Source of the DNA: Eubacteriales bacterium | Lineage (GTDB): Bacteria > Bacillota > Clostridia > Oscillospirales > CAG-272 | Length of the DNA: 64,000 nt | Assembly (NCBI GenBank): GCA_045612385.1 | Contig: JAZKYZ010000023.1 | Coordinates: 9,766-73,765 of the forward strand | Direction of reading: 5' to 3' | In this document: positions 32,195 through 55,335 of the stretch, piece by piece | Position numbering within the stretch: the first letter of the stretch is position 1 | How the letters are laid out: every line of letters begins with the position of its first letter | The notes under the pieces: generated by a model | What the model was told of the DNA's origin: nothing | The model's database searches: none | The model's input: the letters and a program-made list of their open reading frames with translations, nothing else | Made by a program: the position numbers and the translations under genes

Positions 32195-32223
32195 TTGACA
32201 AAGATAGTTAAAAATGATATAAT
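32195..32223 (+). promoter_or_regulatory. Consensus sigma-A promoter of the pur operon
   Basis: TTGACA, 17 nt, TATAAT, with a TGa extended -10. Confidence 0.7.
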
Positions 32224-32249
32224 TTGTGCGTGAGCAATTTTTGCTCCAA

Positions 32250-32336
32250 AACTTCTGCAACTGACGGATGAGTGGAAGCCGACGTGGCAAAACCACAAGG
32301 GAACAGAGGTTTCATATATGCCGACCGTCTGGGCTT
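32250..32336 (+). promoter_or_regulatory. ZTP (pfl-motif) riboswitch aptamer
   Basis: Blocks resemble the pfl/ZTP consensus. The 5' part is CAACUGACGG...GUGG..(loop)..CCACAAGGGAAC. After a linker, the 3' part is CCGACCGUCUGGGC (consensus ...CCGCCUGGGC). GACGG/CCGUC could be a compensatory pair relative to consensus GGCGG/CCGCC. It sits between the promoter and purE. Confidence 0.6.
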
Positions 32337-32379
32337 ACCGTCTTAGTGATTAGGATAGGTGCGCCCTTTTTTGTTTTTT
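32331..32379 (+). terminator. Riboswitch expression-platform terminator
   Basis: An imperfect long hairpin gggcttaccgtcttag...ttaggataggtgcgccc followed by TTTTTTGTTTTTT. Its 5' arm overlaps the conserved CUGGGC of the aptamer. Confidence 0.55.
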
Positions 32380-32412
32380 ACTCAACGCTTTGAATATAGA
32401 AAGGAAAAATCA

Positions 32413-32907
32413 ATGAAAAAAGTAGGTATCTTAATGGGAAGTGATTCCGACCTTCCTGTCATTCGTAAGGCAACAGCCGTTCTGGAGGAATTCGGCGTTC
32501 CTTATGAAGTTCACGTTTACTCTGCGCATCGCACGCCTGTGGAGGCCGCTGACTTTGCTCAAAATGCCGCATCCTGTGGCTTTGGTGTTCTGATTTGTGC
32601 GGCTGGTATGGCAGCGCACCTTGCCGGTGTGGTTGCTTCCAAAACCATTCTTCCGGTCATTGGTATTCCCTGTAAGGGCGCGAATCTGGATGGACTGGAT
32701 GCCCTCCTTTCTACCGTAATGATGCCTTCGGGCATTCCTGTGGCGACTGTCGCTGTGGATGGAGGCGCGAACGCGGCTCTGCTCGCGTGTCAGATGCTCG
32801 CTCTGTCGGATGCGTCCCTCGCTCTGGCTCTTACACAAAAGCGAGAGAGAGATCGACTGACGGTATTGGAAAAGAACAAAAAAGTAGAACTTGAATTTAA
32901 CAAATAA
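32413..32907 (+). CDS. purE: 5-(carboxyamino)imidazole ribonucleotide mutase
   Basis: [22 protein letters not shown] and GMAAHLAG motifs. The start at 32413 lies downstream of the terminator. Confidence 0.9.
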
Positions 32908-32936
32908 AATACAAATATAACGAGGAGAACAAAAAA

Positions 32937-33617
32937 ATGAAACTTGTTTACACAGGAAAAACCAAAGATGTTTACGCTCTTGAAAATGGCAACTATCTTC
33001 TGAAATTCAAAGACGATTGCACTGGAAAAGACGGTGTGTTTGATCCAGGCGAAAACAGTGTAGGTCTTACCATTGAGGGCGTTGGTGACGTCAATTTGCG
33101 TATGTCGATTTATTTCTTTGAAAAGGTCAATGCTGCTGGTATCAAGACTCACTATATCAGTGCCGACCTTGCAAAAACCACTATGGAAGTTCTCCCTGCG
33201 AAGCCTTTTGGCAAGGGACTGGAAGTCATCTGCCGTCATAAGGCAGTCGGCTCCTTCTATCGTCGTTACAGCGACTATGTTACACTCGGTCAGGATCTTC
33301 CCGCCTATGTGGAAATGACCTTTAAAAATGATGAAAAGGGCGATCCATTGGTAACCAAAGAGGGTCTGGTATGTCTTGGTGTTATGACAGAAAAGCAGTA
33401 TGATGATGTCGCAGAAATGACAAGAAAAATCACACAGATTGTCGCAGATGATCTTCTTGAAAAGGGTCTTGTTCTCTATGATATCAAGTTTGAATTCGGC
33501 TACGACCAAAACGGTGACGTTATGCTGATCGACGAGATTGCATCAGGCAATATGCGTGTTTACAAAAACGGTGAATACATTGATCCTATGACCCTCTCCA
33601 CCCTTTTCTTTGCATAA
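32937..33617 (+). CDS. purC: SAICAR synthetase
   Basis: [14 protein letters not shown]-terminus, ~226 aa, and its position in the pur operon. Confidence 0.85.
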
Positions 33618-33628
33618 AGGAGCGTCAG

Positions 33629-35050
33629 ATGGGTGGATTTTTTGGAGCAACCCTGCGCCACGACGCCATTATGGACGTGTTCTTTGGCGTTGACTATCAT
33701 TCCCATTTAGGAAATCGTCGCGCAGGTATGGCCGCCATCAATGAGGAAGTGGGTTTTCAGCGCGAGATTCACAGCATTGAAAACTCTCCCTTCCGTACGA
33801 AATTTGAAAAAATATTTGAAGAAATGTCGGGCAATAGCGCGATTGGCTGTATCAGTGATAGTGAGCCCCAGCCTCTCCTGATGCGTTCCCGACTTGGTAC
33901 CTACGCCATCTGTATGGTGGGTATCATCAATAACGCCGATCAAATCATTCGTGAATGCCTGCCCGACGGCGTGCATTTTAACGCAATGACAGGTGGTCGG
34001 GTCAACGCTGTGGAACTGCTCTCGGCGCTTATCAACTGTAAAAGCTCCTTTGTCGAGGGAATTTCCTATGCGCAGAGCGTGATTCAGGGTACGGTGAACG
34101 TCTTGATTTTATGCGAGGATGGCTCTTTGCTTTGCGCTCGTGACAAAATGGGAAGAATTCCCGTTCTTCTCGGCAAATGCGAGGATGGCTACTGTGTCAC
34201 CTTTGAATCCTTCGCCTACGAAAAACTTGGATATACGAAAGCCTATGAGCTTGGACCGGGTGAGATTGTGTCGGTCCGACAGGATGGTTTTTCTGTGCTA
34301 AAAGAGCGTGGGGAAGAGATGCGTATCTGTGCCTTCCTCTGGTCTTACTACGGTTATCCCACCTCCTGTTATGAAGGCGTCAATGTCGAAACAATGCGTT
34401 ATCGCAATGGTGAGATTATGGCAGAAAATGACCAGAAGAGTGGCTTCTCCTCTCCTTTGGATTGTGTCGCTGGCATTCCCGATTCGGGTACCCCTCACGC
34501 CATTGGTTATGCCAATCGCTCTCGCACGCCGTTCGCTCGTCCCTTTATTAAGTACACCCCGACCTGGCCCCGTAGTTTTATCGGCGCCAAAACGGCAGAC
34601 CGTAAGCGTGTCGCCAAGATGAAGATGGTCCCTGTCAAAGAACTCATAGCAGGGAAAGATCTTCTTTTTGTAGACGATTCTATTGTGCGTGGCACACAGC
34701 TCAAGGAAACTGTCGATTTCCTTTATGACAATGGAGCAAGGAGCGTACATATGCGTTCTGCTTGCCCCCCAATTATGCACTCCTGTAAATTCTTAAACTT
34801 CACTCGTTCGACAAATGAGATGGATCTGATTGCTCGTCGCGCAGTGATGGAATTGGAAGGAGAGGAGGGCTTCCTCCACTTAGATGAATACAGTGATGGA
34901 ATGACCGAGCGTGGCAAACGTCTGCGTGTCGCCATTGCCGAAAAATTTCATTTTGCTACCCTTGATTTTCAGTCGCTTGACGGAGTGATTCGCGCGATTG
35001 GAATTGACCCCTGTAAACTTTGCACCTATTGCTGGAATGGAAAGGAATAA
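33629..35050 (+). CDS. purF: Amidophosphoribosyltransferase homologue lacking the N-terminal Cys nucleophile
   Basis: PRPP-binding motif LLFVDDSIVRGTQ. The Ntn-like N-domain is recognisable but begins MGGFFG rather than MCG. It occupies the canonical purF slot between purC and purM. Confidence 0.75.
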   Translation: MGGFFGATLRHDAIMDVFFGVDYHSHLGNRRAGMAAINEEVGFQREIHSIENSPFRTKFEKIFEEMSGNSAIGCISDSEPQPLLMRSRLGTYAICMVGIINNADQIIRECLPDGVHFNAMTGGRVNAVELLSALINCKSSFVEGISYAQSVIQGTVNVLILCEDGSLLCARDKMGRIPVLLGKCEDGYCVTFESFAYEKLGYTKAYELGPGEIVSVRQDGFSVLKERGEEMRICAFLWSYYGYPTSCYEGVNVETMRYRNGEIMAENDQKSGFSSPLDCVAGIPDSGTPHAIGYANRSRTPFARPFIKYTPTWPRSFIGAKTADRKRVAKMKMVPVKELIAGKDLLFVDDSIVRGTQLKETVDFLYDNGARSVHMRSACPPIMHSCKFLNFTRSTNEMDLIARRAVMELEGEEGFLHLDEYSDGMTERGKRLRVAIAEKFHFATLDFQSLDGVIRAIGIDPCKLCTYCWNGKE

Positions 35051-35053: not shown

Positions 35054-36097
35054 ATGAATACAGAATCCAGATCAGATAGCTACGCTCTTGCTGGCGTTGA
35101 TATTACCGCAGGCTACAAAGCCGTTGAATTGATGAAAACACATATCGCTCGCACAATGCTTCACGGAGATGCTTCAGACATCGGAGGCTTTGGCGGTCTG
35201 TTTGCTCTCGACCTCACAGGTTACCAGAATCCCATTCTTGTTTCTGGTACAGATGGTGTCGGCACTAAACTCAAACTCGCCTTCCTCTTGGACAAGCACG
35301 ATACCGTAGGTATCGACTGCGTCGCAATGTGTGTGAACGACGTAATTTGTTGTGGCGCAAAGCCCCTCTTTTTCCTCGATTATATCGCTTGTGGAAAGAA
35401 CTTCCCTGAAAAGATTGCCGATATCGTTGGTGGTATCGCAGAGGGCTGCGTACAGTCGGGATGTGAGCTGATCGGTGGCGAAACTGCCGAGATGCCAGGT
35501 TTTTACCCCATTGACGAATATGACCTTGCCGGCTTCGCTGTCGGTATTGTAGATCGCAGTCAGGTGATTGACAAAACCTCGATGAAGGAAGGGGATGTGA
35601 TGATTGCCATTCCTTCCTCTGGCGTACATTCCAACGGCTTTTCACTTGTACGTCGCGTGTTTGATGTCGAAAACTGTGACCTTCGCGCACCCCTTGAGGA
35701 ACTCGGTGGTAAATCGCTTGGCGAAACCCTCCTCACCCCCACGAAAATCTATGTTAAGCCAATGCTTGCTCTGATGGAGCAGGTGAAGGTAAAGGGCATT
35801 TCCCATATTACCGGTGGTGGCTTCTATGAAAATATGCCTCGCTCCATTCCTGACGGACTGGGCGTTAAAATCAAGAAGGCAGATGTTCGCATTCTTCCTA
35901 TCTTCAAACTTCTCCAGAAGGTCGGTAATATTTCCGAGCACGATATGTTCAACACCTTTAATATGGGTGTGGGTATGTCCGTCGTTGTGGCGAAAGAGGA
36001 TGTCGAAGCGACCCTTCGTATTCTGCGCGACAATGGCGAGGATGCCTATGTCATTGGCGAGATTATCGCTGGCGATAAGAAGGTAATCATAGAATGA
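35054..36097 (+). CDS. purM: AIR synthetase
   Basis: [18 protein letters not shown] and GGETAEMPG motifs. Confidence 0.9.
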
Positions 36098-36717
36098 GAG
36101 CGCCATTAAGAGTTGCCGTTTTGGTTTCAGGTGGTGGCACGAATCTGCAAGCCCTGATAGATGCAGAGCGTTCTGGAAAAATCAAGAGTGGCACACTCTC
36201 TCTCGTTATCTCAAATAAAGAGGGAGCGTTTGCGCTTGAGCGTGCGAAAAACGCAGGAATTCCGACCGAAACGGTATTAAAGAAAGCGATTGGAAGCGCC
36301 GAAGGCTTTGAGGCGAAAATCCACTCTCTTTTAGAGGAATACAGAATTGATATCATTGTCCTGGCTGGCTTTATGTGTATTCTTTCCGAAAACTTCACCT
36401 CGCGTTATGAAAAAAGAATTCTCAATGTTCACCCCTCCCTCATTCCGTCCTTCTGTGGTGCTGGCTATTATGGACTCCGTGTCCACGAGGCGGCGCTCGC
36501 CTATGGCGTGAAGGTGACGGGAGCGACGGTCCATTTCGTAAACGAGGTGCCGGACGGTGGCGAGATTATTTTACAGAAGGCGGTATCGGTCCGAGAGGGA
36601 GATACCCCTGAACTTCTGCAAGCGCGTGTGATGCGTGAGGCAGAATGGAAGATTCTTCCTCGTGCGCTGGAGATGGTATGTAAACAGACCTCTCCCTTAT
36701 ATTCCCCTTTATATTGA
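36094..36717 (+). CDS. purN: GAR formyltransferase
   Basis: [17 protein letters not shown] and [12 protein letters not shown] motifs. The start overlaps the purM stop. Confidence 0.9.
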
Positions 36718-39966: not shown

Positions 39967-39968
39967 CT

Positions 39969-42900
39969 ATGGTATATAGAGTATATGTAGAAAAAAAGCA
40001 GGGACTTGACAACGAAGCGCGTTCTCTGCAAAGCGAGCTTTCCACCCTTCTTGGCATTCACGCTCTTACAGGCGTTCGTGTCTTGAATCGTTATGATGTG
40101 GAAAACCTCGACGAGGACCTTTTTGCCCGTACCATCACAGACGTGTTCTCGGAACCACAACTGGATTTGGCAACACGTGAGCTCTCGCTCGGGGAGGATG
40201 AAACGGTGATTGCCACCGAGTATCTTCCCGGACAGTTTGACCAAAGAGCCGATAGCGCAATGCAGTGCATTCGCCTGATGTGTCCCGAAGCGAATCCCCT
40301 CGTCAGAACAGCGAAGGTTTTTATCTTCAAAGGTAACCTTTCCACCGATGACATTCTCGCAATTAAAAAATACATCATTAACCCAGTGGAGGCAAGAGAG
40401 GCGAAACTGGAGCTTCCCGAAACGCTTGCCCTTGCCTACGAACTTCCTGAAACGGTCGAAAAAGTAGAGGGCTTTATCACCCTCGACCGTGACGGGCTGA
40501 AGTCACTTCTTGCAAAACTCGGTCTGGCAATGGATATAGATGACATTCTCTTTTGCCAAAAGTATTTTCAGGAGGAAGGCAGAGATCCCACCATTACAGA
40601 AATCCGAATGATTGACACTTACTGGTCCGACCACTGTCGTCATACGACCTTCCTGACCACGATTGACAACGTCACCTTTGAGGATGACTTGCTTCGTGAA
40701 GCGTATAATGAATATCTTGCTCTTCGCCAGCGTATTGGCAGAACCAAGCCTCAAAACCTGATGGATATTGCGACGCTTGCCGTGAAGGTTCTGCGCAGAG
40801 AGGGCAAACTGGATAAACTGGATGAATCGGAAGAAATCAACGCGTGTACCGTAAAAATGAAAGTGGAAGTGGACGGTGTATGCGAGGACTGGCTTCTTCT
40901 GTTCAAAAATGAAACACACAATCATCCCACAGAAATTGAACCCTTTGGTGGTGCTGCTACCTGTATCGGTGGCGCCATTCGTGACCCTCTTTCTGGTCGT
41001 TCCTATGTTTACGGCGCTATGCGTGTGACGGGTGCTGCCGATCCTACCGTTGCTGTGGAGGATACGATTGAAGGAAAACTTCCACAAAGAAAAATTGTCA
41101 CTACTGCGGCGGCAGGCTACTCCTCTTATGGTAACCAGATTGGTCTTGCCACAGGCATTGTAGACGAACTCTATCACCAGGGTTATGCAGCGAAGCGTAT
41201 GGAAATTGGCGCAGTGATTGCTGCTGCTCCCGCGCGTAATGTGCGTCGTGAGTGCCCTGTGGATGGCGACGTAGTCATCCTTCTTGGTGGACGTACTGGC
41301 AGAGATGGCTGTGGTGGCGCGACGGGCTCCTCGAAAAAGCACACCCTCACCTCCCTTGAGAGCTGTGGCGCAGAGGTCCAAAAGGGAAATGCCCCTGAGG
41401 AAAGAAAACTTCAGCGCCTGTTCCGTAACTATGAAGCTTGTCGTATGATCAAGCGCTGTAACGACTTTGGCGCAGGTGGTGTCTCTGTTGCAATCGGTGA
41501 ACTTGCCGACGGTCTTGACATTAACCTCAATGCCGTTCCTAAAAAATATGAAGGCCTTGATGGCACCGAACTTGCGATTTCCGAATCGCAGGAGCGAATG
41601 GCTGTCGTAGTGGAAAAAGAAAATGTAGAACGCTTTATGGCGCTCGCTGAAAGCGAAAACCTTGAGGCGACAGTGGTCGCTTTTGTGACGGAGGAAAAAC
41701 GCCTTCGTATGCACTGGAATGGTGTAACGATTGTCGATCTTTCTCGTGATTTCCTGAACTCAAACGGCGCAGAAAAGCATATTGATATCTCTCCTGCAAA
41801 GCCTCTCTCCTACGAAAAAGCGAGCGTTGCTTCCTTTGAGGAAGGCTATCTTGCTCTTGCAGAGGATCTCAACGTTTGTTCAAAACGTGGACTCAGCGAG
41901 CGTTTCGATTCCACCATTGGAGCCGGCACTGTCCTGATGCCATTTGGTGGTAAGCACCAAGCGACGCCCATTCAGGCAATGGTGCAGAAGATTTCCGTTG
42001 AAGAAAAGCACACCAATACCTGCTCTTATATGGCTTGGGGCTATAACCCCTATATCGCAGAGAAAAGCCCCTATCATTCAGCATACCTCGCTGTTGTAGA
42101 AAGTGTAGCGAAGTTGATCGCTACGGGCGCGAGCTTCTCGGACACCTACCTTACCTTCCAGGAATATTTTGAAAAGCCTGGACGGGATGGCAAGCGTTGG
42201 GGCAAGCCCTTCGCCGCACTTCTCGGCGCACTGAAGGCGCAGATGGATCTTGGCATTGGCGCTATTGGTGGCAAGGACTCAATGAGTGGATCCTTTGAAG
42301 ACTTGGATGTTCCTCCTACTCTGGTTTCCTTCGCCGTTACCACAGGCAATGTGGACGAGGTCATCACAGGCGAATTCAAAAAGGCGGGACACTCCCTTGT
42401 GCATCTTGCGCCTGAATATGACGAAAACGGTTTGCCGAAGAAGGAGAGCCTTCTCGCCCTCTTCGATCGTGTCACCACTCTTATGAGAGAGGGAAAGGTC
42501 TTTGCCTCTTACACGCCTACCTATGGTGGCATAGCTGAAGCAGTGCTGAAAATGTCACTTGGCAATGGTCTTGGTTTCTCCTACTCTCCCTGTGTATCGC
42601 TGGATAGCATTTTTGGCTACGCCTATGGCTCCTTCCTTCTTGAAGTAGAGGATGCGTCACTTGGTACGCTCATTGGTACCATCACAGATACAGCCGAAAT
42701 TACCTACGGTGACACAACAATTTCCCTTGAAAAGTTAATAAAAGTTTACAATAGCAAGCTCGAAGGCGTATATCCGACGCTTGAGGGTGACAATGCGAAG
42801 CGCCTTGAAACCTTCTCGTTTGAGAGAAAGAAAGCCATTCCTTCCCCTGCGATCAAGGTGGCGAAGCCTCGTGTGCTGATTCCTGTATTCCCTGGTACAA

Positions 42901-43664
42901 ACTGCGAATACGACTCGGCGAAGGTAATGCGCGACGCTGGCGCTATCCCTGAAATTTTTGTAATCAACAACCAGTCGGAGGACGGAATCAAACGTTCGGT
43001 GGAAGCCTTCTCACAAAGACTTTCCGAGTCACAGATGGTATTTGTTCCCGGTGGCTTTTCGGGCGGTGACGAGCCGGATGGTTCGGGTAAATTCATTATG
43101 GCATTCTTCCGTAATCCTTCTGTGAAGGAGCAAATCCATACCCTCCTTGATCGTCGTGACGGCTTGATGTGTGGTATCTGTAATGGCTTCCAGGCTCTTG
43201 TTAAACTGGGACTTGTCCCCTACGGTCATATTATGGATGCCGACGAGAATGCGCCTACACTTACCTTCAATACCATCGCGCGTCACCAGTCGAAGATCGT
43301 TCGTGTACGAATTGCCTCCAATGCTTCCCCTTGGCTCTCGCATACGAAGGTTGGTGAGATTTATTCCGTTCCGATCTCTCACGGAGAAGGTCGTTTCCTC
43401 GCCAGTGATGAGGTGGTACGTGCTCTTTCTGAAAACGGACAGATCGCTACCCAGTATGTTGACCTCGAAGGCTTTGCGACGGATGATGTTCGCTACAATC
43501 CGAACAATTCGGTTTATGGCATTGAGGGCATCCTCTCGCCCGATGGTCGTGTAATTGGTAAGATGGGACACAGCGAGCGTATCGGCTATGGTTTATACAA
43601 AAATGTGCTTGGCGAATATGATATGGGTATGTTCCAGAGCGCAGTAGAGTACTTCAAAAAATAA
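39969..43664 (+). CDS. purL: FGAM synthase, single-chain large form (PurS/PurL/PurQ fused)
   Basis: 1231 aa. ETHNHPTEIEPFGGAATCIGG motif. The C-terminal GATase has GICNGFQAL (Cys) and ISHGEGRF (His/Glu). Confidence 0.9.
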   Translation: MVYRVYVEKKQGLDNEARSLQSELSTLLGIHALTGVRVLNRYDVENLDEDLFARTITDVFSEPQLDLATRELSLGEDETVIATEYLPGQFDQRADSAMQCIRLMCPEANPLVRTAKVFIFKGNLSTDDILAIKKYIINPVEAREAKLELPETLALAYELPETVEKVEGFITLDRDGLKSLLAKLGLAMDIDDILFCQKYFQEEGRDPTITEIRMIDTYWSDHCRHTTFLTTIDNVTFEDDLLREAYNEYLALRQRIGRTKPQNLMDIATLAVKVLRREGKLDKLDESEEINACTVKMKVEVDGVCEDWLLLFKNETHNHPTEIEPFGGAATCIGGAIRDPLSGRSYVYGAMRVTGAADPTVAVEDTIEGKLPQRKIVTTAAAGYSSYGNQIGLATGIVDELYHQGYAAKRMEIGAVIAAAPARNVRRECPVDGDVVILLGGRTGRDGCGGATGSSKKHTLTSLESCGAEVQKGNAPEERKLQRLFRNYEACRMIKRCNDFGAGGVSVAIGELADGLDINLNAVPKKYEGLDGTELAISESQERMAVVVEKENVERFMALAESENLEATVVAFVTEEKRLRMHWNGVTIVDLSRDFLNSNGAEKHIDISPAKPLSYEKASVASFEEGYLALAEDLNVCSKRGLSERFDSTIGAGTVLMPFGGKHQATPIQAMVQKISVEEKHTNTCSYMAWGYNPYIAEKSPYHSAYLAVVESVAKLIATGASFSDTYLTFQEYFEKPGRDGKRWGKPFAALLGALKAQMDLGIGAIGGKDSMSGSFEDLDVPPTLVSFAVTTGNVDEVITGEFKKAGHSLVHLAPEYDENGLPKKESLLALFDRVTTLMREGKVFASYTPTYGGIAEAVLKMSLGNGLGFSYSPCVSLDSIFGYAYGSFLLEVEDASLGTLIGTITDTAEITYGDTTISLEKLIKVYNSKLEGVYPTLEGDNAKRLETFSFERKKAIPSPAIKVAKPRVLIPVFPGTNCEYDSAKVMRDAGAIPEIFVINNQSEDGIKRSVEAFSQRLSESQMVFVPGGFSGGDEPDGSGKFIMAFFRNPSVKEQIHTLLDRRDGLMCGICNGFQALVKLGLVPYGHIMDADENAPTLTFNTIARHQSKIVRVRIASNASPWLSHTKVGEIYSVPISHGEGRFLASDEVVRALSENGQIATQYVDLEGFATDDVRYNPNNSVYGIEGILSPDGRVIGKMGHSERIGYGLYKNVLGEYDMGMFQSAVEYFKK

Positions 43665-43753
43665 AAAACGCAGGTGCTCCACTTTGTGGTGGAGCGCCGA
43701 AAACTTAAATTTTGTGGGGCGTTCTCGCGCCCCTTTATGAAAGGGTAACAATT

Positions 43754-45427
43754 ATGGCACAGCTTTCTGATATCGAAATTGCGCAGGGTGCGAAAATGCT
43801 CCCCATTACCACCATTGCCGAAAAACTCGGCATTGATGGCGAGCTTGTTGAGCCTTATGGAAAATACAAAGCAAAACTTGACCTCTCCTTAATGCAAACT
43901 TCTCGTAAGGAGGGAAAATTGATTTTGGTTACTGCCATCACCCCTACCCCTGCCGGTGAGGGAAAAACCACCACGACCATTGGTCTGGCTGACGGTCTGT
44001 CCCGTCTTGGAAAAAAGACGGTAGTGGCACTGCGTGAGCCCTCGCTCGGACCGGTATTCGGCATCAAGGGTGGCGCAGCAGGAGGTGGCTATGCGCAGGT
44101 AGTGCCTATGGAGGACATCAACCTGCACTTCACAGGTGACTTCCACGCCATTGGCGCAGCGAACAACCTTCTCGCAGCAATGCTCGATAACCACATTTAT
44201 CAAGGCAATCGCCTGAACATTGATCCACGTCGCATCACTTGGAAGCGTTGTGTGGATATGAACGACCGTCAGCTTCGTTTTGTTACGGATGGTCTTGGTG
44301 GCAGAGTGAACGGCGTTCCTCGCGAGGATGGCTTTGATATCACTGTCGCATCCGAGATTATGGCAGTCTTTTGTCTTGCTTCCTCGATTGAGGATCTGAA
44401 GGCAAGGCTTTCTCGTATCGTGGTCGCATACACCTATAACGAAGAGCCCATCACTGCTGGTGATTTGGGCGCGGTCGGTGCAATGACGGCACTGCTAAAG
44501 GATGCCATCAAGCCCAATCTCGTGCAGACGCTCGAAGGTACGCCCGCCCTTGTTCACGGTGGACCATTTGCTAATATCGCGCACGGATGCAACTCTGTCA
44601 TTGCGACAAAACTTGCTCTTGCGCTCGGCGATTATGCGATAACAGAGGCTGGCTTCGGCGCAGATCTCGGCGCAGAAAAATTCCTTGACATCAAATGTCG
44701 TATGGCAGGTCTTGCCCCCTCTGCCGTTGTTGTTGTAGCGACGGTGCGCGCCTTGAAGATGCACGGTGGCGTTCCCAAAACCGAACTTTCTGGCGAAAAT
44801 CTGGAAGCGCTCGCAAAGGGACTTCCGAATCTCCTTCGTCACGTGAAGAATATGAGAGAAGTTTACAAACTTCCTTGTGTCGTTGCTGTTAACCGTTTCC
44901 CCACCGATACAGATGCAGAAATTGCCCTCGTCATTGAAAAATGCAAGGAGCTCGGTGTCAACGTGTCACTCTCTACCGTCTGGGCAGAAGGTGGCAAGGG
45001 TGGAGAAGAGCTGGCTCGTGAGGTGATTCGCCTTTGTGAAGAAGAAAAGGGTGATTTTACCTTCTCATATGAGCTTGATACTACCATTGTTGAAAAAATT
45101 GAAGCGATTGTAAAGAAGGTCTACGGTGGCTGTGGCGTAGTTCTCACGCCTCAGGCGAAAAAGCAGCTCACAACCCTTGAAGCGCACGGCTTTGGTCAAC
45201 TTCCTGTCTGTATGGCAAAAACACAGTATTCCTTCTCGGATGACCCGACAAAACTGGGTGCGCCCGAAGGCTTTACCGTTACTGTTCGTAACCTGAAGGT
45301 AAGCGCAGGCGCTGGCTTCGTGGTTGCCCTGACTGGAGATATTATGACAATGCCGGGACTTCCTAAAGTTCCTTCGGCAGAAAAAATTGATGTCGACGAA
45401 AACGGAAGAATCACAGGTCTTTTCTAA
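43754..45427 (+). CDS. fhs: Formate--tetrahydrofolate ligase
   Basis: SDIEIAQ N-terminus and P-loop [16 protein letters not shown] prefer the start at 43754 (MAQLSDIE). Confidence 0.9.
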
Positions 45428-45441
45428 TATAATTCAATAAT

Positions 45442-45480
45442 AAAGGGTGCCCGAAGCGTTGCTTTCTGGCGCCCTTTCTT
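45442..45480 (+). terminator. Probable terminator after fhs
   Basis: aaagggtgcc / ggcgcccttt 10-bp stem. The T-run is weak (tttctt, partly inside the stem). Confidence 0.4.
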
Positions 45481-45605
45481 AAAAAGAAATATCATCCCCA
45501 CAGGCGAGCCGGAACTTCTCATTTATTTTTCCGACTTTACCCTCACCGAAACAGTGACGGATGTTAGCATCACTCTCTTTGAAGAAATCATTTAATAATT
45601 TTTCT

Positions 45606-45638
45606 CTGTCCCAAATTCGTTTTGGGACAGATTTTTTT
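45606..45638 (+). terminator. Strong intrinsic terminator with no assigned gene upstream
   Basis: ctgtcccaaa / tttgggacag 10-bp stem with a ttcgt loop, followed by aT7. Confidence 0.7.
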
Positions 45639-45719
45639 GCTTGTTTTCACAAATTATACTGAAAAAACACATTTACATTGTGTAATGTTACAAAACTATC
45701 AAAAAGCAGAAAAACTGCC

Positions 45720-45748
45720 TTGACAAAAAAGAATTATTATGTTATAAT
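45720..45748 (+). promoter_or_regulatory. Consensus sigma-A promoter of the pyr operon
   Basis: TTGACA, 17 nt, TATAAT, with a TGt extended -10. Confidence 0.7.
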
Positions 45749-45788
45749 AAATAGAAAATAATAGAAAATAAATTTTGTGGAGGTAGGT

Positions 45789-47033
45789 ATGAAAACTCGT
45801 GTAGAAATGACCGAAGCGATTCGTTCTCACGCATTGGCAAATTTGTCCTCTTTTGTCGACCCCTCTTCTTTTGATATTGATAATCTTTTGATTTTGCCCG
45901 GTTTTTGCGATGTGCATGTGCATTTTCGTGAGCCGGGTTTTTCTTATAAAGAAACCATAAAGACAGGCTCTGCCTCTGCGGCGCGTGGTGGCTATACTGC
46001 CGTGATGACAATGCCAAATCTCTCCCCAGTTCCCGATAGCGTTGTGCATCTTGAAGAACAACTCACAATCATTGAGCGTGATGCGACCATTGATATCTAC
46101 CCCTATGGCGCGATTACCGTCGGGCAGATGGGTGAGGAACTTTCCGATATGGAAGGTATGGCAGAGCGTGTGATTGCCTTTTCTGATGATGGAAAGGGTG
46201 TGCAGAGCGAGGAGATGATGCGAGAAGCAATGCTTCGCGCCAAGTCACTTGGTAAAATCATTGTGGCGCACTGCGAGGTGAACGCTCTCTTGCGTGGTGG
46301 TTATATTCACGATGGCGTATATGCAAAAGCGTTTGGACATCGTGGCATATCTTCTGCCTCTGAGTATGAGCAAATACGTAGAGATATCCGACTGGTGGAG
46401 GAAATTGGCGTGGCATACCACGTCTGCCACGTGTCGACGAAGGAAAGCGTTGCCTTGATTCGTGAGGCAAAGCGACGTGGTGTCAATATCACCTGCGAAA
46501 CCGGACCTCACTACCTGATCTTAAATGACCAGATGATAGGCGAGGAGGGCAGATATAAAATGAATCCTCCGATTCGCTCGGAGGCAGACCGTATCGCTCT
46601 CGTGCAAGGCATACTGGATGGCACGATTGATATGATTGCTACCGACCACGCGCCCCACAGTGAGGAAGAAAAAAGTCGTGGACTTGAAAAGAGTGCTTTT
46701 GGTATTGTGGGGCTTGAAACGGCATTCCCTCTCCTTTATACATACTACATCAAAACTGGAATCCTATCTTTGGAGAGAGCGCTTGATCTTCTTGTATATA
46801 ACCCACGTGAACGCTTCGGCTTGCCCATAGAGCCGGACGGATTCTCTGTTTGGGACGTTTCAAAGGAAAAGGTTGTGCGTCCGGAGGAATTTCTTTCTAT
46901 GGGACACGCGACCCCCTTCGAGGGCTGGCCCTTGTATGGAGAGAATCTCTTGACGGTATGTCGTGGTAAAATTGTTTATCAAAAAAATGAAGATAGAATA
47001 GACGGAGGAAATAAAAATGGCGAAAAGAAGTGA
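45789..47033 (+). CDS. pyrC: Dihydroorotase
   Basis: DVHVHFREPG metal site, ATDHAPH motif, and GGAGG RBS before the ATG at 45789. Confidence 0.9.
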   Translation: MKTRVEMTEAIRSHALANLSSFVDPSSFDIDNLLILPGFCDVHVHFREPGFSYKETIKTGSASAARGGYTAVMTMPNLSPVPDSVVHLEEQLTIIERDATIDIYPYGAITVGQMGEELSDMEGMAERVIAFSDDGKGVQSEEMMREAMLRAKSLGKIIVAHCEVNALLRGGYIHDGVYAKAFGHRGISSASEYEQIRRDIRLVEEIGVAYHVCHVSTKESVALIREAKRRGVNITCETGPHYLILNDQMIGEEGRYKMNPPIRSEADRIALVQGILDGTIDMIATDHAPHSEEEKSRGLEKSAFGIVGLETAFPLLYTYYIKTGILSLERALDLLVYNPRERFGLPIEPDGFSVWDVSKEKVVRPEEFLSMGHATPFEGWPLYGENLLTVCRGKIVYQKNEDRIDGGNKNGEKK

Positions 47034-50000
47034 TTTAAAGAAAATTCTGATTATCGGCTCTGGTCCTATTATTATTGGACAGGCGGCAGAATTTGACTAT
47101 GCTGGTACACAGGCGTGCCTTGCCCTTAAGGAAGAAGGCTACGAGGTTGTCCTCGTTAACTCCAACCCTGCGACCATTATGACCGATACGAGCATTGCGG
47201 ATAAGGTTTATATGGAGCCCTTGACGCTTGAATATGTAGCGAAGATTCTTCGTTATGAGCGTCCCGATGCGATTGTTCCTGGCATTGGTGGACAGACGGG
47301 TCTGAACCTCGCAATGCAACTTGAGAAAAAGGGCATTTTAAAGGAATGCCACACCGAGCTTCTTGGTACGTCGAGCGAGTCGATTGAGAGAGCAGAGGAC
47401 CGTGAACTTTTCAAGGAGCTTTGCATTTCGATTGGCGAGCCTACCATTCCCTCCGAAATCACATACAATCTTGAAGAGGCAAAAGCAGCCGCAGAGCGCA
47501 TTGGTTATCCTGTGGTTCTTCGTCCTGCCTTTACGCTTGGTGGTACAGGTGGTGGCTTCGCTTCCAATGAGGAGGAACTTGTCAAAATCGGTACCAACGG
47601 CTTTGCGCTTTCTCCTGTGCATCAGGTGTTGATTGAAAAGAGCGTGAAGGGCTACAAGGAAATCGAGTTTGAGGTAATGCGTGACAGAAATGATAACGCC
47701 ATCACCATCTGTGGTATGGAAAATATTGACCCTGTCGGCGTGCATACTGGCGACTCTATCGTTGTCGCTCCCATTCTCTCTCTCTCCGAGCACGACCTTC
47801 GTATGCTCAATGATAGTGCGATTAAAATTATTCGTGAACTGAAAATTGAGGGTGGTTGTAACGTGCAGTTTGCTCTCAATCCTGAAACGTCCGAATATTT
47901 CCTGATTGAGGTAAACCCCCGTGTATCCCGTTCTTCTGCCCTTGCCTCTAAAGCAAGTGGTTACCCAATCGCACGTGTGACGGCTAAGGTTGCCGTCGGT
48001 ATGACACTGGATGAAATCGAGGTCGCAGGTACGACAGCGATTCACGAGCCTCGTCTTGACTATATCGTAGCGAAATTCCCTCGCTTCCCCTTCGATAAAT
48101 TCACCTCTGCATCTAACCTTCTCGGCACGCAGATGAAAGCAACAGGTGAGGTAATGGCAATCGGAACGACCCTGACCGAAGCATTGCTTAAGTCGGTGCG
48201 CTCTCTTGAAATCGGAGCAATGCATTTCCATCTTCCGAAGTTCGATTCTTATACCGACGAGGAACTTCGTACCTACCTTTCTGATATGCACTATGACAGC
48301 TCCTTTGCTGTAATGGAGTTGCTTCGTCGTGGCGAGAGCATAGAGAGCCTTCACGAGATCACAAAAATCACCGAGTTGTTCCTCGAAGCCTTCCGTTCCA
48401 TCGTAGAAATGGAAGAGATACTCAAGGAAAAGAAAAACGATATAAAGGCACTCAAGGCAGCAAAGATGATTGGCTTCTGTGACGCCTATATTGCCAAACT
48501 TTGGGGCGTTTCGGAAATGGATATCTACAATATGCGTCACAAAGAGAATATTCGTCCTGTGTTCCGTATGGTTGATACGCTCCACAGTGGTGCGTATATC
48601 CCCTATTTCTATTCCTCCTACTACGGCGAAAATCAGTCTATTGTCACCGATAAAAAGAAGGTCATCACGCTTGGCGCCGGCCCCATTCGTATCGGACAGG
48701 GCGTTGAGTTCGATTATTCCACCGTTCACGCTGTTTCCACCATCAAGCGTTCGGGCTACGAAGCGATTATCATTAACAATAACCCGGAAACGGTTTCCAC
48801 CGATTATACCACCTCCGATAAACTTTACTTTGAGCCTCTTACCCCTGAGGATGTGATGAACATTCTTGAATTTGAGGGAGCAAATGAGGTAATCGCCTCG
48901 CTCGGTGGACAGACGGCAATCAACCTTGCCGACCCCCTGATGCGTCGTGGCGTTTCCATTATCGGTACCGATTGCGCTGCGATTGACAGAGCAGAGAACC
49001 GTGACCTCTTTGAAAAGGTCTTACGTGAACTTAATATTCCTCAGCCCGAAGGCAGAGCCGTCACCAAAATTGAGGATGGTGTTGCTGCTGCGGCAAAAAT
49101 CGGTTATCCCGTTCTTGTTCGTCCCTCGTTCGTGCTGGGTGGCAGAGCAATGCAGATTGTATCCAACGAAGAGCAACTTCGCCACTACCTTAAGACAGCG
49201 GTAGAAATCGACGAGGACAAGCCTGTCTTGGTCGACAAGTATATTACGGGTAAAGAGGTTGAGGTCGACGCTATCTGCGACGGACGCGACGTCTTTGTTC
49301 CAGGCATTATGGAACTTGTTGAGCGTACGGGTATTCACTCTGGCGACTCCATCAGCGTTTACCCCACCTTCTCCATCTCCAATAAGGTGAAAGGCACCAT
49401 CCTCCAGTATGCGAAGAAACTCGGTCTTGGCATTGGCATTGTCGGTCTTTATAACATTCAGTTTATCGTCGACAAGAATGAAAATGTATATATAATCGAG
49501 GTCAATCCTCGTTCTTCAAGAACCGTCCCCTTCCTCTCTAAAGCGACTGGCTATTCTCTTGCCGATATCGCAACGGAAGTCATTTTGGGTAAAACACTCA
49601 AGGAGCAGGGAATTTTCGATATTTATCCCGAAGAAAAGAAGAGATGGTATGTCAAGGTTCCTGTTTTCTCCTTCAATAAAATCACAGGACTCGATGCCTA
49701 CCTCTCCCCTGAAATGAAATCGACTGGCGAAGCCATTGGCTATGACGATAAACTCAATCGCGCACTCTACAAAGCCCTTCAGGCGTCGGGTATGCGACTT
49801 CAGAATTACGGAACCGTTTTTGCGACGATTGCAAGAGGGGATAAGGAGGAGGCGCTTCCTCTCATTCGCCGTTTCTATAATCTCGGATTCAATATTGAAG
49901 CGACAGAGGGTACGGCGAAATTCCTAAAGGAAAACGGCATTCGCACGCATATTCTTCGTAAGATTTCCGACGGTTCCAACGAAATTCTCGATTCCATCCG

Positions 50001-50190
50001 TCAAGGACATATTGCTTATGTCATTAACACTTCGGGCGTTGGCTCGACCTCCTCGTCCTCAGATGGTTATAAGATTCGTAAGCAGGCGACCGAAAGCAAT
50101 GTCACCATCTTCACCTCTCTGGATACCGTAAGGGTTCTTCTGGACGTCCTTGAGGAAACTACCCTTTGTATCTCCACAATTGATGCGTGA
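47017..50190 (+). CDS. carB: Carbamoyl-phosphate synthase large subunit
   Basis: 1057 aa with two ATP-grasp halves (ILIIGSGPIIIGQAAEFDYAG and VITLGAGPIRIGQGVEFDY) and a C-terminal MGS-like domain. Confidence 0.95.
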   Translation: MAKRSDLKKILIIGSGPIIIGQAAEFDYAGTQACLALKEEGYEVVLVNSNPATIMTDTSIADKVYMEPLTLEYVAKILRYERPDAIVPGIGGQTGLNLAMQLEKKGILKECHTELLGTSSESIERAEDRELFKELCISIGEPTIPSEITYNLEEAKAAAERIGYPVVLRPAFTLGGTGGGFASNEEELVKIGTNGFALSPVHQVLIEKSVKGYKEIEFEVMRDRNDNAITICGMENIDPVGVHTGDSIVVAPILSLSEHDLRMLNDSAIKIIRELKIEGGCNVQFALNPETSEYFLIEVNPRVSRSSALASKASGYPIARVTAKVAVGMTLDEIEVAGTTAIHEPRLDYIVAKFPRFPFDKFTSASNLLGTQMKATGEVMAIGTTLTEALLKSVRSLEIGAMHFHLPKFDSYTDEELRTYLSDMHYDSSFAVMELLRRGESIESLHEITKITELFLEAFRSIVEMEEILKEKKNDIKALKAAKMIGFCDAYIAKLWGVSEMDIYNMRHKENIRPVFRMVDTLHSGAYIPYFYSSYYGENQSIVTDKKKVITLGAGPIRIGQGVEFDYSTVHAVSTIKRSGYEAIIINNNPETVSTDYTTSDKLYFEPLTPEDVMNILEFEGANEVIASLGGQTAINLADPLMRRGVSIIGTDCAAIDRAENRDLFEKVLRELNIPQPEGRAVTKIEDGVAAAAKIGYPVLVRPSFVLGGRAMQIVSNEEQLRHYLKTAVEIDEDKPVLVDKYITGKEVEVDAICDGRDVFVPGIMELVERTGIHSGDSISVYPTFSISNKVKGTILQYAKKLGLGIGIVGLYNIQFIVDKNENVYIIEVNPRSSRTVPFLSKATGYSLADIATEVILGKTLKEQGIFDIYPEEKKRWYVKVPVFSFNKITGLDAYLSPEMKSTGEAIGYDDKLNRALYKALQASGMRLQNYGTVFATIARGDKEEALPLIRRFYNLGFNIEATEGTAKFLKENGIRTHILRKISDGSNEILDSIRQGHIAYVINTSGVGSTSSSSDGYKIRKQATESNVTIFTSLDTVRVLLDVLEETTLCISTIDA

Positions 50191-51875: not shown

Positions 51876-52574
51876 ATGGGAAAAGACGTAATCATTGCCT
51901 GTGATTTTGACAGCGCAGAAAAAACCTTCCGTTTTCTTGACCAGTTCACTGGCAAGAAACCCTTTGTAAAAATCGGTATGGAACTCTACTATGCCGAAGG
52001 TCCGGAGATTGTTCGTGAAATCAAAAGACGTGGTCATAAAATCTTCCTTGACCTCAAACTTCACGATATTCCCAATACTGTAAAAAAGGCGATGGCAGTC
52101 CTCTCTCGTCTGGATGTCGATATGACAAACCTTCACGCATCAGGTACCATTCCTATGATGAAGGCTGCGATCGAAGGACTCACTCGCCCCGATGGTACTC
52201 GTCCCATCCTCATTGCGGTAACGCAGTTGACATCAACGGACGAGGATACAATGCGTCACGATCTTTTGATTGAGCACCCGATTGCTGATGTTGTTATGCA
52301 CTACGCGCAGTGCGCGAAAGAAGCAGGACTTGACGGCGTTGTCTGCTCGCCGAAAGAAGCGCAGGTGGTCCACTCCTCCTGTGGGGAATCCTTCATTACT
52401 GTAACACCTGGCGTTCGTTTTGCTGACGGTGACGTGGGAGACCAAAAGAGAGTTATGACGCCCGCTGAGGCAAAGAGAATTGGCTCCGACTACATTGTTG
52501 TCGGCCGTCCGATCACTGCTGCCGAAGATCCTGTGGCTGCATACGAGCGTTGCGTTCGTGAATTTGTTGATTGA
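51876..52574 (+). CDS. pyrF: Orotidine 5'-phosphate decarboxylase
   Basis: IIACDF..., [12 protein letters not shown] and VVGRPIT motifs. Confidence 0.9.
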
Positions 52575-52599
52575 TTTGATAAAAAGAAAGGATACGATT

Positions 52600-53232
52600 A
52601 TGGAAAAGAAAATTGCAAGAGATCTGCTCTCCATTCAGGCGGTATTCTTCCGTCCCGAAGAGCCTTTTACTTGGGCAAGTGGCATCAAAAGCCCCGTTTA
52701 CTGTGATAACCGTTTGACACTCACTGCACCCGAAGTGCGTATAGATGTCGAAGAGGGACTTGCTGAGGTTGTTCGCACCCATTATCCTGATTGTGAAGTC
52801 TTGATGGGTACCTCTACTGCTGGCATTGCGCACGCAGCAATTACTGCGCATATTCTCGGTCTGCCTATGGGCTATGTTCGTTCTGGCTCTAAGGATCACG
52901 GCAGACAAAATCAAATTGAAGGAAAACTTCTTCCTGGTCAGAAGGTTGTTGTTATCGAGGATTTGATTTCTACCGGTGGTAGCGTTATCGAGGTAGTCAA
53001 TGTCCTTCGAGAAGCAGGAGCTGAGGTGCTCGGTATCGCTTCTATCTTCACTTATGGTATGAAAAAGGGACTCGTTCGTCTTGCAGAAGCCAATGTGAAA
53101 AATGTTTCCCTCACCAACTTTGACACCATTGCAGAGTGTGCTGCTGAGGAAGGCTACATTAAGCCTGAGGACATTGCTCGCTTGATTGCCTTCCGTAACA
53201 ATCCTTCTGACGAATCTTGGATTAAGGCATAA
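52600..53232 (+). CDS. pyrE: Orotate phosphoribosyltransferase
   Basis: [16 protein letters not shown] and the PRPP motif [13 protein letters not shown]. The start at 52600 follows the pyrF stop. Confidence 0.9.
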
Positions 53233-53234
53233 AA

Positions 53235-54305
53235 ATGAGAAGTTTAATTGACATTATTGACCTTAGTGTCGAAGAAATTGAGGAACTTTGTCGCTGTGCG
53301 TGCGACATTATTGCCCATCCGGAAAAGTATCGTGAAGCGTGTAAATATAAAACGCTCGCCACCCTTTTCTTTGAGCCATCTACGAGAACGCGTCTTTCCT
53401 TTGAGAGCGCAATGCTCGGACTTGGTGGCAGTGTGCTCGGCTTTTCGGAAGCATCTTCCTCTTCTGCGAGCAAGGGCGAGAGCGTTGCCGATACGACAAA
53501 AATTGTAAGTGGCTATGCCGATATTATCGCTATGCGCCACCCTCGCGAGGGCGCTGCCCTTGTCGGCGCCAAAAGCGCGCTTGTTCCCCTGATTAACGCA
53601 GGAGATGGCGCTCACGCGCATCCGACGCAGACTCTCACCGACCTTCTTACCCTCTATCGCGAGAAGGGAAGATTTGACAATCTTACCGTTGCCTTCTGTG
53701 GCGACCTCAAATACGGAAGAACGGTGCATTCCTTTATCGCTGCGCTCTCACGCTATGAGAATATTCGCATCATTCTGGTCTCCCCCGAAGAGCTTGCGAT
53801 TCCTGATTATATCAAGGAAGAATATCTCTCAAAGATGTCATATGAGGAAGTACGTGATTTGGAGGACGCTCTCCCACACGCAGATGTGCTTTATATGACG
53901 AGAATCCAGCGTGAGCGCTTCTCCGATCCCGATGAGTATGAAAGACTGAAAAATTCCTATTGTCTTACTGCCGAGAAGATGACGAGAGCGAAGGAGACAA
54001 TGTCTGTCCTTCATCCCCTCCCCCGTGTCAATGAGATTGCCGTTGCTGTGGATGACGACCCTCGTGCCGCCTATTTCCGTCAGGCATATAACGGTAAATA
54101 TATCCGTATGGCGCTCATCTTGAAATTGTTGCGTGAGAATGACGGCGAAAGATATGCGCTTGACACCTCGAAACTTCAAATAAGTGATTCGCCCTGCCAA
54201 AACGAGAAATGCATCTCGCACGTAGAGCAGGAGCTTCCCCAATATTTCACTCGCGATAGTCACGGAAATGTCCGTTGCCTTTGGTGCGAGTCCGTAGTCC
54301 TCTGA
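53235..54305 (+). CDS. pyrB: Aspartate carbamoyltransferase catalytic chain fused to a PyrI-type zinc domain
   Basis: Catalytic motifs [17 protein letters not shown] and HPLPR. The last ~50 aa are [14 protein letters not shown]...VRCLWCE, i.e. the CX4C...CX2C zinc domain of the regulatory chain. Confidence 0.85.
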
Positions 54306-54333
54306 TAATTGTTCGACTACAAAGGAGAGAAAA

Positions 54334-55335
54334 ATGAACATTCAAAAACGCCCAGAATCGCTTGCTCGCATCACTACCTTTGAGCAGGCAAATGCTTTTA
54401 TTACCGAACAAGTGGATGCCATTCGCGCCCAAGTAGGAGAGGATAAAGTCCTTCTCGCTCTGTCGGGTGGTGTCGACTCCTCTGTTGTTGCCGCCCTTCT
54501 TGTCAAGGCGATTGGCAAACAGCTTATCTGCGTTCACGTCAATCACGGCCTGATGCGTAAAAATGAGTCCGAAGACGTGATCGAAGTATTCCAAAACCAA
54601 CTGGATGCTAACCTCGTTTATGTGGATGCGACCGACCGTTTCCTTGATTTGCTCGCCGGCGTTGCCGATCCTGAGCGTAAAAGAAAAATTATCGGCGCTG
54701 AATTTATCAATGTATTCGCTGACGAGGCGCGCAAACTGGAGGGTGTCAAATTCCTTGCGCAAGGCACCATCTATCCTGACATTCTTGAGTCCATTAAGCA
54801 GGCAGAGGGAAAGAAGGCAGTGAAGTCTCACCATAATGTCGGTGGACTTCCCGACGACCTTCAGTTTGAACTCTGCGAGCCACTGAAATTCCTCTATAAA
54901 GATGAGGTTCGTGTGGTTGGAGAGGCGCTTGGCCTCCCTCACGCTATGGTTTATCGTCAGCCCTTCCCGGGTCCAGGTCTCGGTGTTCGCTGTCTTGGCG
55001 CTATTACACGTGACCGTCTCCACGCCCTGCGTGAAGCAGATGCCATTCTTCGTGAGGAATTCGATAAGGCTGGCCTCGCTGGCAAGGTCTGGCAATACTT
55101 TGTCGCTATTCCCGATATGAAATCGGTCGGTGTCAAGGACGATAGCCGTTACGAAGGTTGGCCAGCGATTATCCGTGCGGTCAATACGACGGATGCGATG
55201 TCTGCTACCATCGAGGAAATCCCTTACGCCATCCTCCACCGTATCACCTCTCGTATCACCTCTGAAGTCGAAGGCATTAACCGTGTCCTCTACGACCTCA
55301 CTCCCAAGCCAACCGGCACCATTGAGTGGGAATAA
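54334..55335 (+). CDS. guaA: GMP synthase ATP-pyrophosphatase plus dimerisation domains only (no glutaminase domain)
   Basis: P-loop LALSGGVDSSV about 40 aa from the N-terminus. C-terminal KPTGTIEWE. At 333 aa it is well short of the ~515 aa bifunctional enzyme. Confidence 0.85.
   Translation: MNIQKRPESLARITTFEQANAFITEQVDAIRAQVGEDKVLLALSGGVDSSVVAALLVKAIGKQLICVHVNHGLMRKNESEDVIEVFQNQLDANLVYVDATDRFLDLLAGVADPERKRKIIGAEFINVFADEARKLEGVKFLAQGTIYPDILESIKQAEGKKAVKSHHNVGGLPDDLQFELCEPLKFLYKDEVRVVGEALGLPHAMVYRQPFPGPGLGVRCLGAITRDRLHALREADAILREEFDKAGLAGKVWQYFVAIPDMKSVGVKDDSRYEGWPAIIRAVNTTDAMSATIEEIPYAILHRITSRITSEVEGINRVLYDLTPKPTGTIEWE

Follow-up and report, generated by a model that had tools for sequence, protein, structure and literature searches.

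Where do the purine and pyrimidine pathways of a gut bacterium find their nitrogen when three of its amidotransferases are encoded as synthase modules only? The question is raised by a 23-kb block of nucleotide biosynthesis genes of an uncultured gut Clostridia bacterium. The block lies on the metagenome-assembled contig JAZKYZ010000023.1, of which we analysed a stretch of 64 kb, hereafter the window. The three nitrogen-transfer steps concerned are the transformation of phosphoribosyl pyrophosphate (PRPP) into phosphoribosylamine by PurF, of bicarbonate into carbamoyl phosphate by CarB, and of xanthosine monophosphate (XMP) into GMP by GuaA. In textbooks and annotation pipelines alike, PurF, CarAB and GuaA figure as glutamine-dependent enzymes, and proteins of the type found in the window are named accordingly by NCBI. 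The original prediction had seen a purF with Gly for Cys1, a carB without carA and a guaA without its glutaminase domain, and had taken them for a coherent shift to ammonia. We identified the genes from an open reading frame (ORF) listing with Pfam and NCBIfam scans, and found the three losses to be real and conserved in the clade. As for the shift itself, the case is strong for PurF and has a precedent for CarB, and GuaA is undecided. The three genes and that of the fourth amidotransferase of the block are listed here, with model cut-offs after the scores where they apply.

33629..35050, + strand: PurF variant with a degenerate glutaminase site, 473 aa (TIGR01134 152.4 bits, PDB alignment, AlphaFold2)
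39969..43664, + strand: PurL, large single-chain formylglycinamidine ribonucleotide (FGAM) synthase (TIGR01857 1842.6 bits vs 1057)
47017..50190, + strand: carB, 1057 aa (NF003671 1432 bits vs 599; TIGR01369 1386 vs 1027)
54334..55335, + strand: guaA, ATP pyrophosphatase (ATPPase) and dimerisation module only, 333 aa (NF000848 465 bits, TIGR00884 437)

A PurF family with a degenerate glutaminase site

The PurF variant, which we call Cys1-less PurF, begins with MGGFFGATL. Its residue 2 is Gly in both the translation and the alignment, as had been predicted. We aligned the window protein and 35 members of its family with the PurF proteins of Bacillus subtilis and Escherichia coli, and the residues of the E. 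coli enzyme correspond as follows.

E. coli Cys1: Gly2
E. coli Arg26: Leu27
E. coli Arg73: Ser76
E. coli Tyr74: Asp77, followed by an 8-residue loop deletion
E. coli Asn101: Val97
E. coli Asp127: Ala127

The N-terminal Cys nucleophile and the glutamine-binding and oxyanion residues (Arg26, Arg73, Asn101, Asp127) are all replaced. The protein is homologous to B. subtilis PurF across both domains (1ao0, E = 1.5e-39) and falls short of the PurF equivalog model TIGR01134, whose cut-off is 350 bits. The PRPP loop is kept (VDDSIVRGT around D350 and R354). Furthermore, Cys234, 386, 465 and 468 align with the 4Fe-4S ligands of the B. subtilis enzyme, Cys236, 382, 437 and 440, and the Fe-S cysteines are present in 32-35 of 36 diverse family representatives. 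The AlphaFold2 model of the protein (pLDDT 92.2, pTM 0.90) superposes on the PurF structures of B. subtilis, Arabidopsis and E. coli (1ao0, 6lbp and 1ecb; Foldseek TM-score 0.81-0.85), which argues that the N-terminal nucleophile (Ntn)-type domain is still folded. Cys1-less PurF is thus predicted to retain the two-domain fold of PurF, namely an Ntn domain followed by a type I phosphoribosyltransferase domain.

This protein belongs to a very large family. An exhaustive HMMER search of cluster representatives retrieved 7164 clusters at E<1e-3, 506 of them at E<1e-30. Among the 120 closest homologues, 119 begin with (M/V)GGF(F/L)G or MGGLFG, and in the last one MGGF follows an upstream start that adds 4 residues. 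Position 1 is Gly in 15, Ser in 12 and Thr in 5 of the 36 diverse full-length representatives, with other residues in the rest; Cys1 is found neither there nor in the 120 closest homologues. The equivalent of Arg73 is Ser in 34 of the 36. The residue that follows the initial Met is Gly in the Clostridia clade and in Bacteroides, whereas about half of the deep family has Ser or Thr there (e.g. P0265, P0270, P0272 and P0275). As Ser and Thr are nucleophilic in other Ntn hydrolases, such members might hydrolyse something.

The place of the gene in the Clostridia clade is the purF slot, with purC (or purE) before it and purM after it, in all 18 related loci that cover it in full; one more locus, the 19th, ends inside it. 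Members of the family are also present in Muribaculaceae and cultured Bacteroides, where NCBI labels them 'amidophosphoribosyltransferase' (10001-11413 in the Bacteroides/Muribaculaceae-like loci L093 and L094, 10001-11416 in L090-L092). The Bacteroides orthologue has 470 aa, with MGGFFGTVSK as its N-terminus. In the cultured Bacteroides (B. intestinalis, 'MULTISPECIES Bacteroides'), the gene adjoins genes for an M20 peptidase and gcvT, and in Muribaculaceae-like contigs it lies directly 3' of purL.

According to what PMC3261824 relays of Mei and Zalkin 1989, Cys1 mutants of E. coli PurF lose the use of glutamine and keep that of ammonia. Given these mutants and a glutaminase site that is degenerate across a huge family, ammonia dependence is the most economical explanation. 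That Cys1-less PurF is an ammonia-dependent phosphoribosylamine synthase is thus well supported by inference. We found no literature on a Cys-less PurF family. The family appears to be uncharacterised and is the newest element of this locus.

CarB and GuaA without linked glutaminase genes

As for carbamoyl phosphate synthesis, CarB is full-length, and the start of its gene overlaps the 3' end of pyrC by 17 nt, which leaves no room for carA. Among the other large ORFs of the window, Pfam scans revealed no CarA, no class I glutamine amidotransferase (GATase) and no second PurF, and tblastn searches of the whole window with E. coli CarA, the N-terminal part of GuaA (GuaA-N) and PurF yielded no match to CarA or a glutaminase. 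We extended the analysis to relatives by a carB scan of one genome per species (GTDB representatives). The scan gave 80 loci from at least 80 species, with CarB identities of 75-84%; their neighbourhoods of about 20 kb (+/-10 kb flanks) amount to 1.6 Mb. These loci come from gut or rumen metagenome-assembled genomes (MAGs) labelled Oscillospiraceae, Acutalibacteraceae, Christensenellaceae, Faecousia, Ruminococcus or Clostridia. The sampling sites were rumen, caecum, colon, rectum and faeces, and the relatives stem for the most part from the gut of animals, ruminants included, and of humans.

The gene order in these relatives is nearly everywhere pyrC-carB-pyrK-pyrD-pyrF-(pyrE)-pyrB, often with the pur operon adjoining. 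In 74 of the 80 species pyrC is immediately 5' of carB. The gap between the two genes is at most 250 nt in 73 of these 74 and 705 nt in the last, where it contains an ORF for a DUF559-like endonuclease; carA, of about 1.1 kb, would fit in none of them. Neither tblastn nor phmmer with the E. coli CarA query, which was verified against PDB 1cs0_B, gave a match in the 1.6 Mb of clade loci. The absence of carA beside carB thus extends from the window to the flanks in all 80 related species. The order in B. subtilis is pyrC-pyrAA-pyrAB-pyrK-pyrD-pyrF-pyrE, and the operon of the clade looks like one of this type from which exactly the glutaminase gene has been taken out. We also considered whether other genes of these loci could be glutaminases. 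Those inserted in the relatives' operons encode an esterase, a Na/Pi transporter, a BspA-like protein, PyrI, GuaB, another type of PyrE and the DUF559-like endonuclease; no glutaminase is among them. In the two loci where carB lies outside a pyr operon (L019 and L083), its neighbours are unrelated genes.

There is a precedent for a CarB of this kind. Bacteroides thetaiotaomicron has a lone CarB2 (BT3866) with no glutaminase partner, which is important in the presence of ammonium, whereas carAB matters only without ammonium (PMC8121099). Furthermore, carA is not co-fit with carB2 (r = -0.02; PMC8121099), and in 2021 Liu et al. put CarB2 forward as an ammonium-dependent carbamoyl phosphate synthase (PMC8121099). 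Our literature search found no further work on CarB2 beyond that study. Because ammonium dependence was already proposed for this protein, ammonia use by the CarB of the window is, by analogy, plausible. The three-step trait had been presented as one not known to be described; for CarB this needs qualifying, as its precedent comes from another phylum, and for PurF we found no earlier report.

The third protein, GuaA, aligns with the GMP synthase model NF000848, which has 512 positions, from 193 to 512 only (465 bits vs 400), and its TIGR00884 score is 437 bits vs 339. As predicted, the chain has no class I GATase domain at its N-terminus, and the gene begins 28 nt after pyrB. The motifs of the synthase module are intact, with the PP-loop SGGVDSS at residue 44, the lid loop VKSHHN at 163, YKDEVR at 188 and GTIEWE at 328. 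All but 6 of the 120 best homologues are 333 aa long and none has a GATase domain; the 333-aa proteins among these best matches, from Clostridia and Ruminococcaceae MAGs, are 86-95% identical. Three of the longer homologues (P0139, P0155 and P0182) were considered as fused forms and ruled out as assembly duplications or over-extended starts. P0139 and P0155 have internal tandem duplications of at most 100 residues on very short contigs and are assembly artefacts.

We found guaA in four contexts, i.e., after pyrB in the window, after rpoB-rpoC (L001-L004), after purA (L085) and isolated (L086), and no GATase gene lies beside it in any of them. With the GuaA-N query, tblastn and phmmer revealed no GuaA-type GATase in the 1.6 Mb of clade pur, pyr and guaA loci. 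GMP synthase occurs as a two-domain form in bacteria and as a two-subunit form with separate genes in archaea (PMC10526850 and a second review). The window protein scores 367 bits to the bacterial two-domain enzyme 7sbc vs 316 bits to the archaeal subunit B 6jp9, and about 20 residues of the interdomain linker are kept. It looks like a bacterial-type enzyme cut at that linker. We found no literature on a bacterial GuaA reduced to its ATPPase module.

The isolated ATPPase subunit of Methanocaldococcus jannaschii can use NH4+ for GMP synthesis (Km 4.1 mM), and its kcat is then the same as that of the glutamine-dependent holoenzyme (PMC10526850), so that the module is ammonia-competent in principle. 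In the archaeal two-subunit form, however, the glutaminase gene is unlinked, and loss of the GATase is therefore indistinguishable from its relocation in the case of GuaA. Whether the GuaA of the window depends on ammonia is thus open as judged from its sequence.

The window is part of a metagenome-assembled contig and two database homologues of GuaA are clearly assembly artefacts, so mis-called starts, frameshifts, pseudogenes or mis-assembly of MAGs should be considered as the source of all three observations. However, the N-terminus of Cys1-less PurF, the 333-aa GuaA and the pyrC-carB junction recur in hundreds of independent assemblies (NCBI, ENA, JGI and Logan), and Cys1-less PurF is present in cultured Bacteroides. 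An upstream start that would restore Cys1 was ruled out, as there are stop codons just 5' of the start and no Cys-Gly motif is available. Recurrence in independent assemblies effectively refutes an artefact, to which we give next to no credence.

Weighing a shift to free ammonia

Which nitrogen source would these synthase modules use? In the explanation that we favour, free cytoplasmic ammonia would feed Cys1-less PurF, CarB and GuaA, entering by way of the former internal ammonia channel. Its use might represent an adaptation to, or a relaxation in, the ammonia-rich gut habitat. The N-domain of Cys1-less PurF would probably be retained as part of the active-site closure, channel and regulatory architecture, and PurL would keep its glutaminase. 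PurL is known to use ammonia very poorly. Chance is not an issue, because the same three states recur in many related genomes. Judged from these genomes, the losses are conserved lineage traits across many species and not local accidents, and as such they are consistent with a coherent shift. We regard the chances that all three steps run on free ammonia as even. The broader proposition is of a large gut Clostridia lineage with three ammonia-fed nucleotide steps, no glutaminase partner genome-wide, and a PurF N-domain remodelled around a DYHSH motif. We put it forward more tentatively, below even chances.

Several points weigh against this explanation. The first is that glutamine amide nitrogen is clearly still in use. 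PurL, the only amidotransferase of the block to keep its glutaminase, has the intact triad that had been predicted (GICNGFQ at residue 1069 and HGEGR at 1138), and matches GATase_5 with 269 bits at residues 966-1229. In the related locus L075 there is a gene for an intact HisH that has its catalytic Cys (GICLGMQ, HPEKS; + strand, about 2714-3358), the sole match to the glutaminase queries (E. coli CarA, GuaA-N and PurF) in the clade loci by tblastn and phmmer; a Cys1 PurF was thus found neither in the window nor in these neighbourhoods. Glutamine amide nitrogen is therefore still produced and consumed in this lineage. From the genes at hand, the change in glutaminases is selective, with no general loss. 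The second point is affinity, as the Km for NH4+ is poor in two characterised GMP synthases, at 103 mM for the E. coli and 174 mM for the human enzyme (PMC10526850).

The third point is that glutaminase subunits might be encoded elsewhere in these genomes. Only Cys1-less PurF would then depend on ammonia, and CarB, GuaA or both would work with unlinked partners, so that gene linkage would have changed and not the nitrogen source. The archaeal GMP synthase subunits are separately encoded and associate only transiently (PMC10526850), and GuaA keeps the KDEVR helix, the Asp of which touches the GATase domain in the Plasmodium falciparum enzyme, so that the protein is compatible with a partner. 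We rejected this helix as a test for a partner, since it is ATP-binding and invariant in all GMP synthases, and hence uninformative. An unlinked carA, for instance with arginine genes, or a stand-alone GuaA-type GATase could be present. Bacteroides has carAB in addition to its lone carB2, so a lone carB does not imply a genome without carA, and HisH attests to a class I glutaminase in the clade. Yet carA is gone from exactly its B. subtilis-type slot in 74 of the 80 species, neither CarA nor a GuaA-type GATase was found in the 1.6 Mb around the clade's pur, pyr and guaA genes, and guaA has no conserved glutaminase neighbour in its four contexts. The lack of co-fitness between carA and carB2 of B. 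thetaiotaomicron argues in the same direction. Such a mixture of ammonia use and unlinked subunits is a possible, though doubtful, reading.

The last point concerns the N-domain of Cys1-less PurF, which is about as conserved as the catalytic domain (mean pairwise identity in the family of 37.6% vs 41.0%) and carries a new, near-invariant polar motif, G-x-D-Y-H-S-H-L-G (G20-x-D22-Y23-H24-S25-H26 in the window). The conservation and the motif hint at a function beyond scaffolding. It is tempting to speculate that the domain has gained a new role, with another nitrogen donor handled by Ser1 or Thr1 as the Ntn nucleophile, or with DYHSH as part of a regulatory or sensor domain. The near-invariance of D22-Y23-x-x-H26 together with Ser76, and the Ser (12/36) or Thr (5/36) at position 1 of the diverse representatives, would fit such a role. 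In contrast, residue 1 after Met removal is Gly in the Clostridia clade and Bacteroides, and Gly is not nucleophilic. Moreover, the oxyanion and substrate-binding residues have no consistent replacement, and Cys1-to-Ser PurF of E. coli is described, in the passage of PMC3261824 that deals with it, as being without glutaminase activity. We consider a new function of this kind unlikely.

If free ammonia is indeed the nitrogen source in a dominant group of gut and rumen Clostridia and for Cys1-less PurF in Bacteroides, models of nitrogen flux in gut communities would need revising and genome-based predictions of nucleotide auxotrophy would change. Ammonia-dependent phosphoribosylamine synthesis would then be a major, overlooked route of the gut microbiome. 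The ammonia requirement of many rumen bacteria is well known, and it would gain a concrete enzymatic basis. Cys1-less PurF would also be a natural test case for what becomes of an amidotransferase after loss of its glutaminase site. The family has thousands of members and is present in cultured, genetically tractable Bacteroides, and is hence directly testable.

Layout of the region and comparison with known systems

How is this block organised? It comprises 18 protein genes, all in one direction behind a single riboswitch. The first operon reads purE-purC-purF-purM-purN-purO-purH-purD-purL-fhs, in which purF is the Cys1-less form, and the second pyrC-carB-pyrK-pyrD-pyrF-pyrE-pyrB, with the GMP synthase ATPPase gene guaA at its end. 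The features not listed above are the following.

32247..32341, + strand: ZMP/ZTP riboswitch aptamer (full-length match to RF01750, 56.5 bits vs a gathering score of 39)
32359-32907, + strand: purE (Pfam AIRC 200.8 bits)
32937-33617, + strand: purC (Pfam SAICAR_synt 138.4 bits)
35054-36097, + strand: purM (Pfam)
36094-36717, + strand: purN (Pfam)
36737-37456, + strand: PurO-like IMP cyclohydrolase (Pfam)
37469-38653, + strand: purH with the formyltransferase (AICARFT) part only (NF005492 667 bits vs 415)
38701-39966, + strand: purD (Pfam)
43712..45427, + strand: fhs, formate-tetrahydrofolate ligase, end of the pur operon (Pfam FTHFS 918.7 bits)
45428..45776, + strand: inter-operon gap, 349 nt (pattern scan and direct sequence reading)
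45777..47033, + strand: pyrC, dihydroorotase (TIGR00857 363 bits vs 279)
50199-50945, + strand: pyrK (Pfam, NCBIfam)
50930-51841, + strand: pyrD (Pfam, NCBIfam)
51876-52574, + strand: pyrF (Pfam, NCBIfam)
52480-53232, + strand: pyrE ORF (Pfam, NCBIfam)
53235..54305, + strand: pyrB fused to a PyrI zinc domain (TIGR00670 345.7 bits; PF02748 PyrI_C 27.4 vs 23.4)

The riboswitch ends 17 nt 5' of purE, the first gene of the pur operon, which is under its control. In the gap between fhs and pyrC, a pattern scan revealed two terminator-like hairpins some 130 nt from each other (45456-45472 and 45605-45631) and a sigma-70 promoter at 45720-45748 with a 12/12 consensus match and an extended -10 element. 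The hairpins and the promoter indicate that the 23-kb block consists of two transcription units. The region had been described as one co-directional block of 19 genes; the common direction is correct, and the count comes to 18 genes plus the riboswitch, in two units.

The original prediction had also drawn attention to a PyrB-zinc-domain fusion, a split PurH and ZTP control. All three features are present (Pfam, NCBIfam and Rfam), but they are ordinary rather than novel. NCBIfam has a separate equivalog model for PurH of the AICARFT-only kind, and pur and fhs genes are the usual regulon of the ZTP riboswitch. As for the fusion, the C-terminus of PyrB (residues 321-354) corresponds to the zinc domain of PyrI alone. 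Some relatives share it, their pyrB aligning to about residue 353. In others pyrB is of 301 residues; three loci of this kind were inspected (L020, L069 and L078), and in each a separate full-length pyrI comes next, followed by guaB in L020 and L069. The listed pyrE ORF opens at a TTG and overlaps pyrF by 95 nt, and its homologues align only from residue ~40, so that the true start is probably near that residue, at ~52597. Many relatives have a different type of PyrE, which the pyrE query from the window missed.

A BspA-type leucine-rich-repeat protein is encoded directly 3' of guaA (55578-57299), and a BspA-like repeat gene (9473-10708) is inserted between carB and pyrK in the relative L011. 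At 6302-8530 of the window lies a gene for a DUF1538 membrane protein of 505 aa and, after it, one for a protein of 235 aa whose C-terminal part is a P-II nitrogen-regulator domain; the pair may be relevant to nitrogen or carbon sensing. Finally, a 458-aa ORF on the - strand (11218-12594) has no Pfam match and adjoins genes for tRNA-Tyr and tRNA-Thr (10830-10989) and a glycoside hydrolase family 2 (GH2) glycosidase.

How do these proteins compare with known systems? The CarB of the window resembles the lone CarB2 (BT3866) of B. thetaiotaomicron, which is also a full-length CarB of a gut anaerobe, with no adjoining glutaminase subunit and a proposed direct use of ammonium. It differs in that its gene lies inside a pyr operon, beside the usual slot of carA, and in its host, a member of the Clostridia. 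GuaA is reminiscent of the archaeal two-subunit GMP synthetases (M. jannaschii and Pyrococcus horikoshii; GuaAA for the GATase and GuaAB for the ATPPase) in that the ATPPase/dimerisation module is a separate polypeptide. Unlike them, it is of bacterial type with linker residues kept, and no gene for a GATase subunit was found in the loci searched.

Cys1-less PurF shares with the canonical 4Fe-4S PurF of B. subtilis (1ao0/1gph) the two-domain fold, the PRPP loop, the four Fe-S cysteines and the position in the pur operon. In contrast, it has other residues for Cys1, Arg26, Arg73, Asn101 and Asp127 and lacks the loop that follows Arg73. Changes specific to the family near the PRPP site are Thr353 to Gln and Asn306 to Tyr (B. 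subtilis numbering). The closest functional parallels are the Cys1 mutants of E. coli PurF, as PMC3261824 relays them, and mitochondrial carbamoyl phosphate synthetase I (PMC8121099), which combine a retained, dead glutaminase domain with an ammonia-dependent synthase. However, the former were made in the laboratory and the latter is a eukaryotic enzyme of the urea cycle, whereas the state of Cys1-less PurF is natural, ancient and widespread in bacterial purine synthesis.

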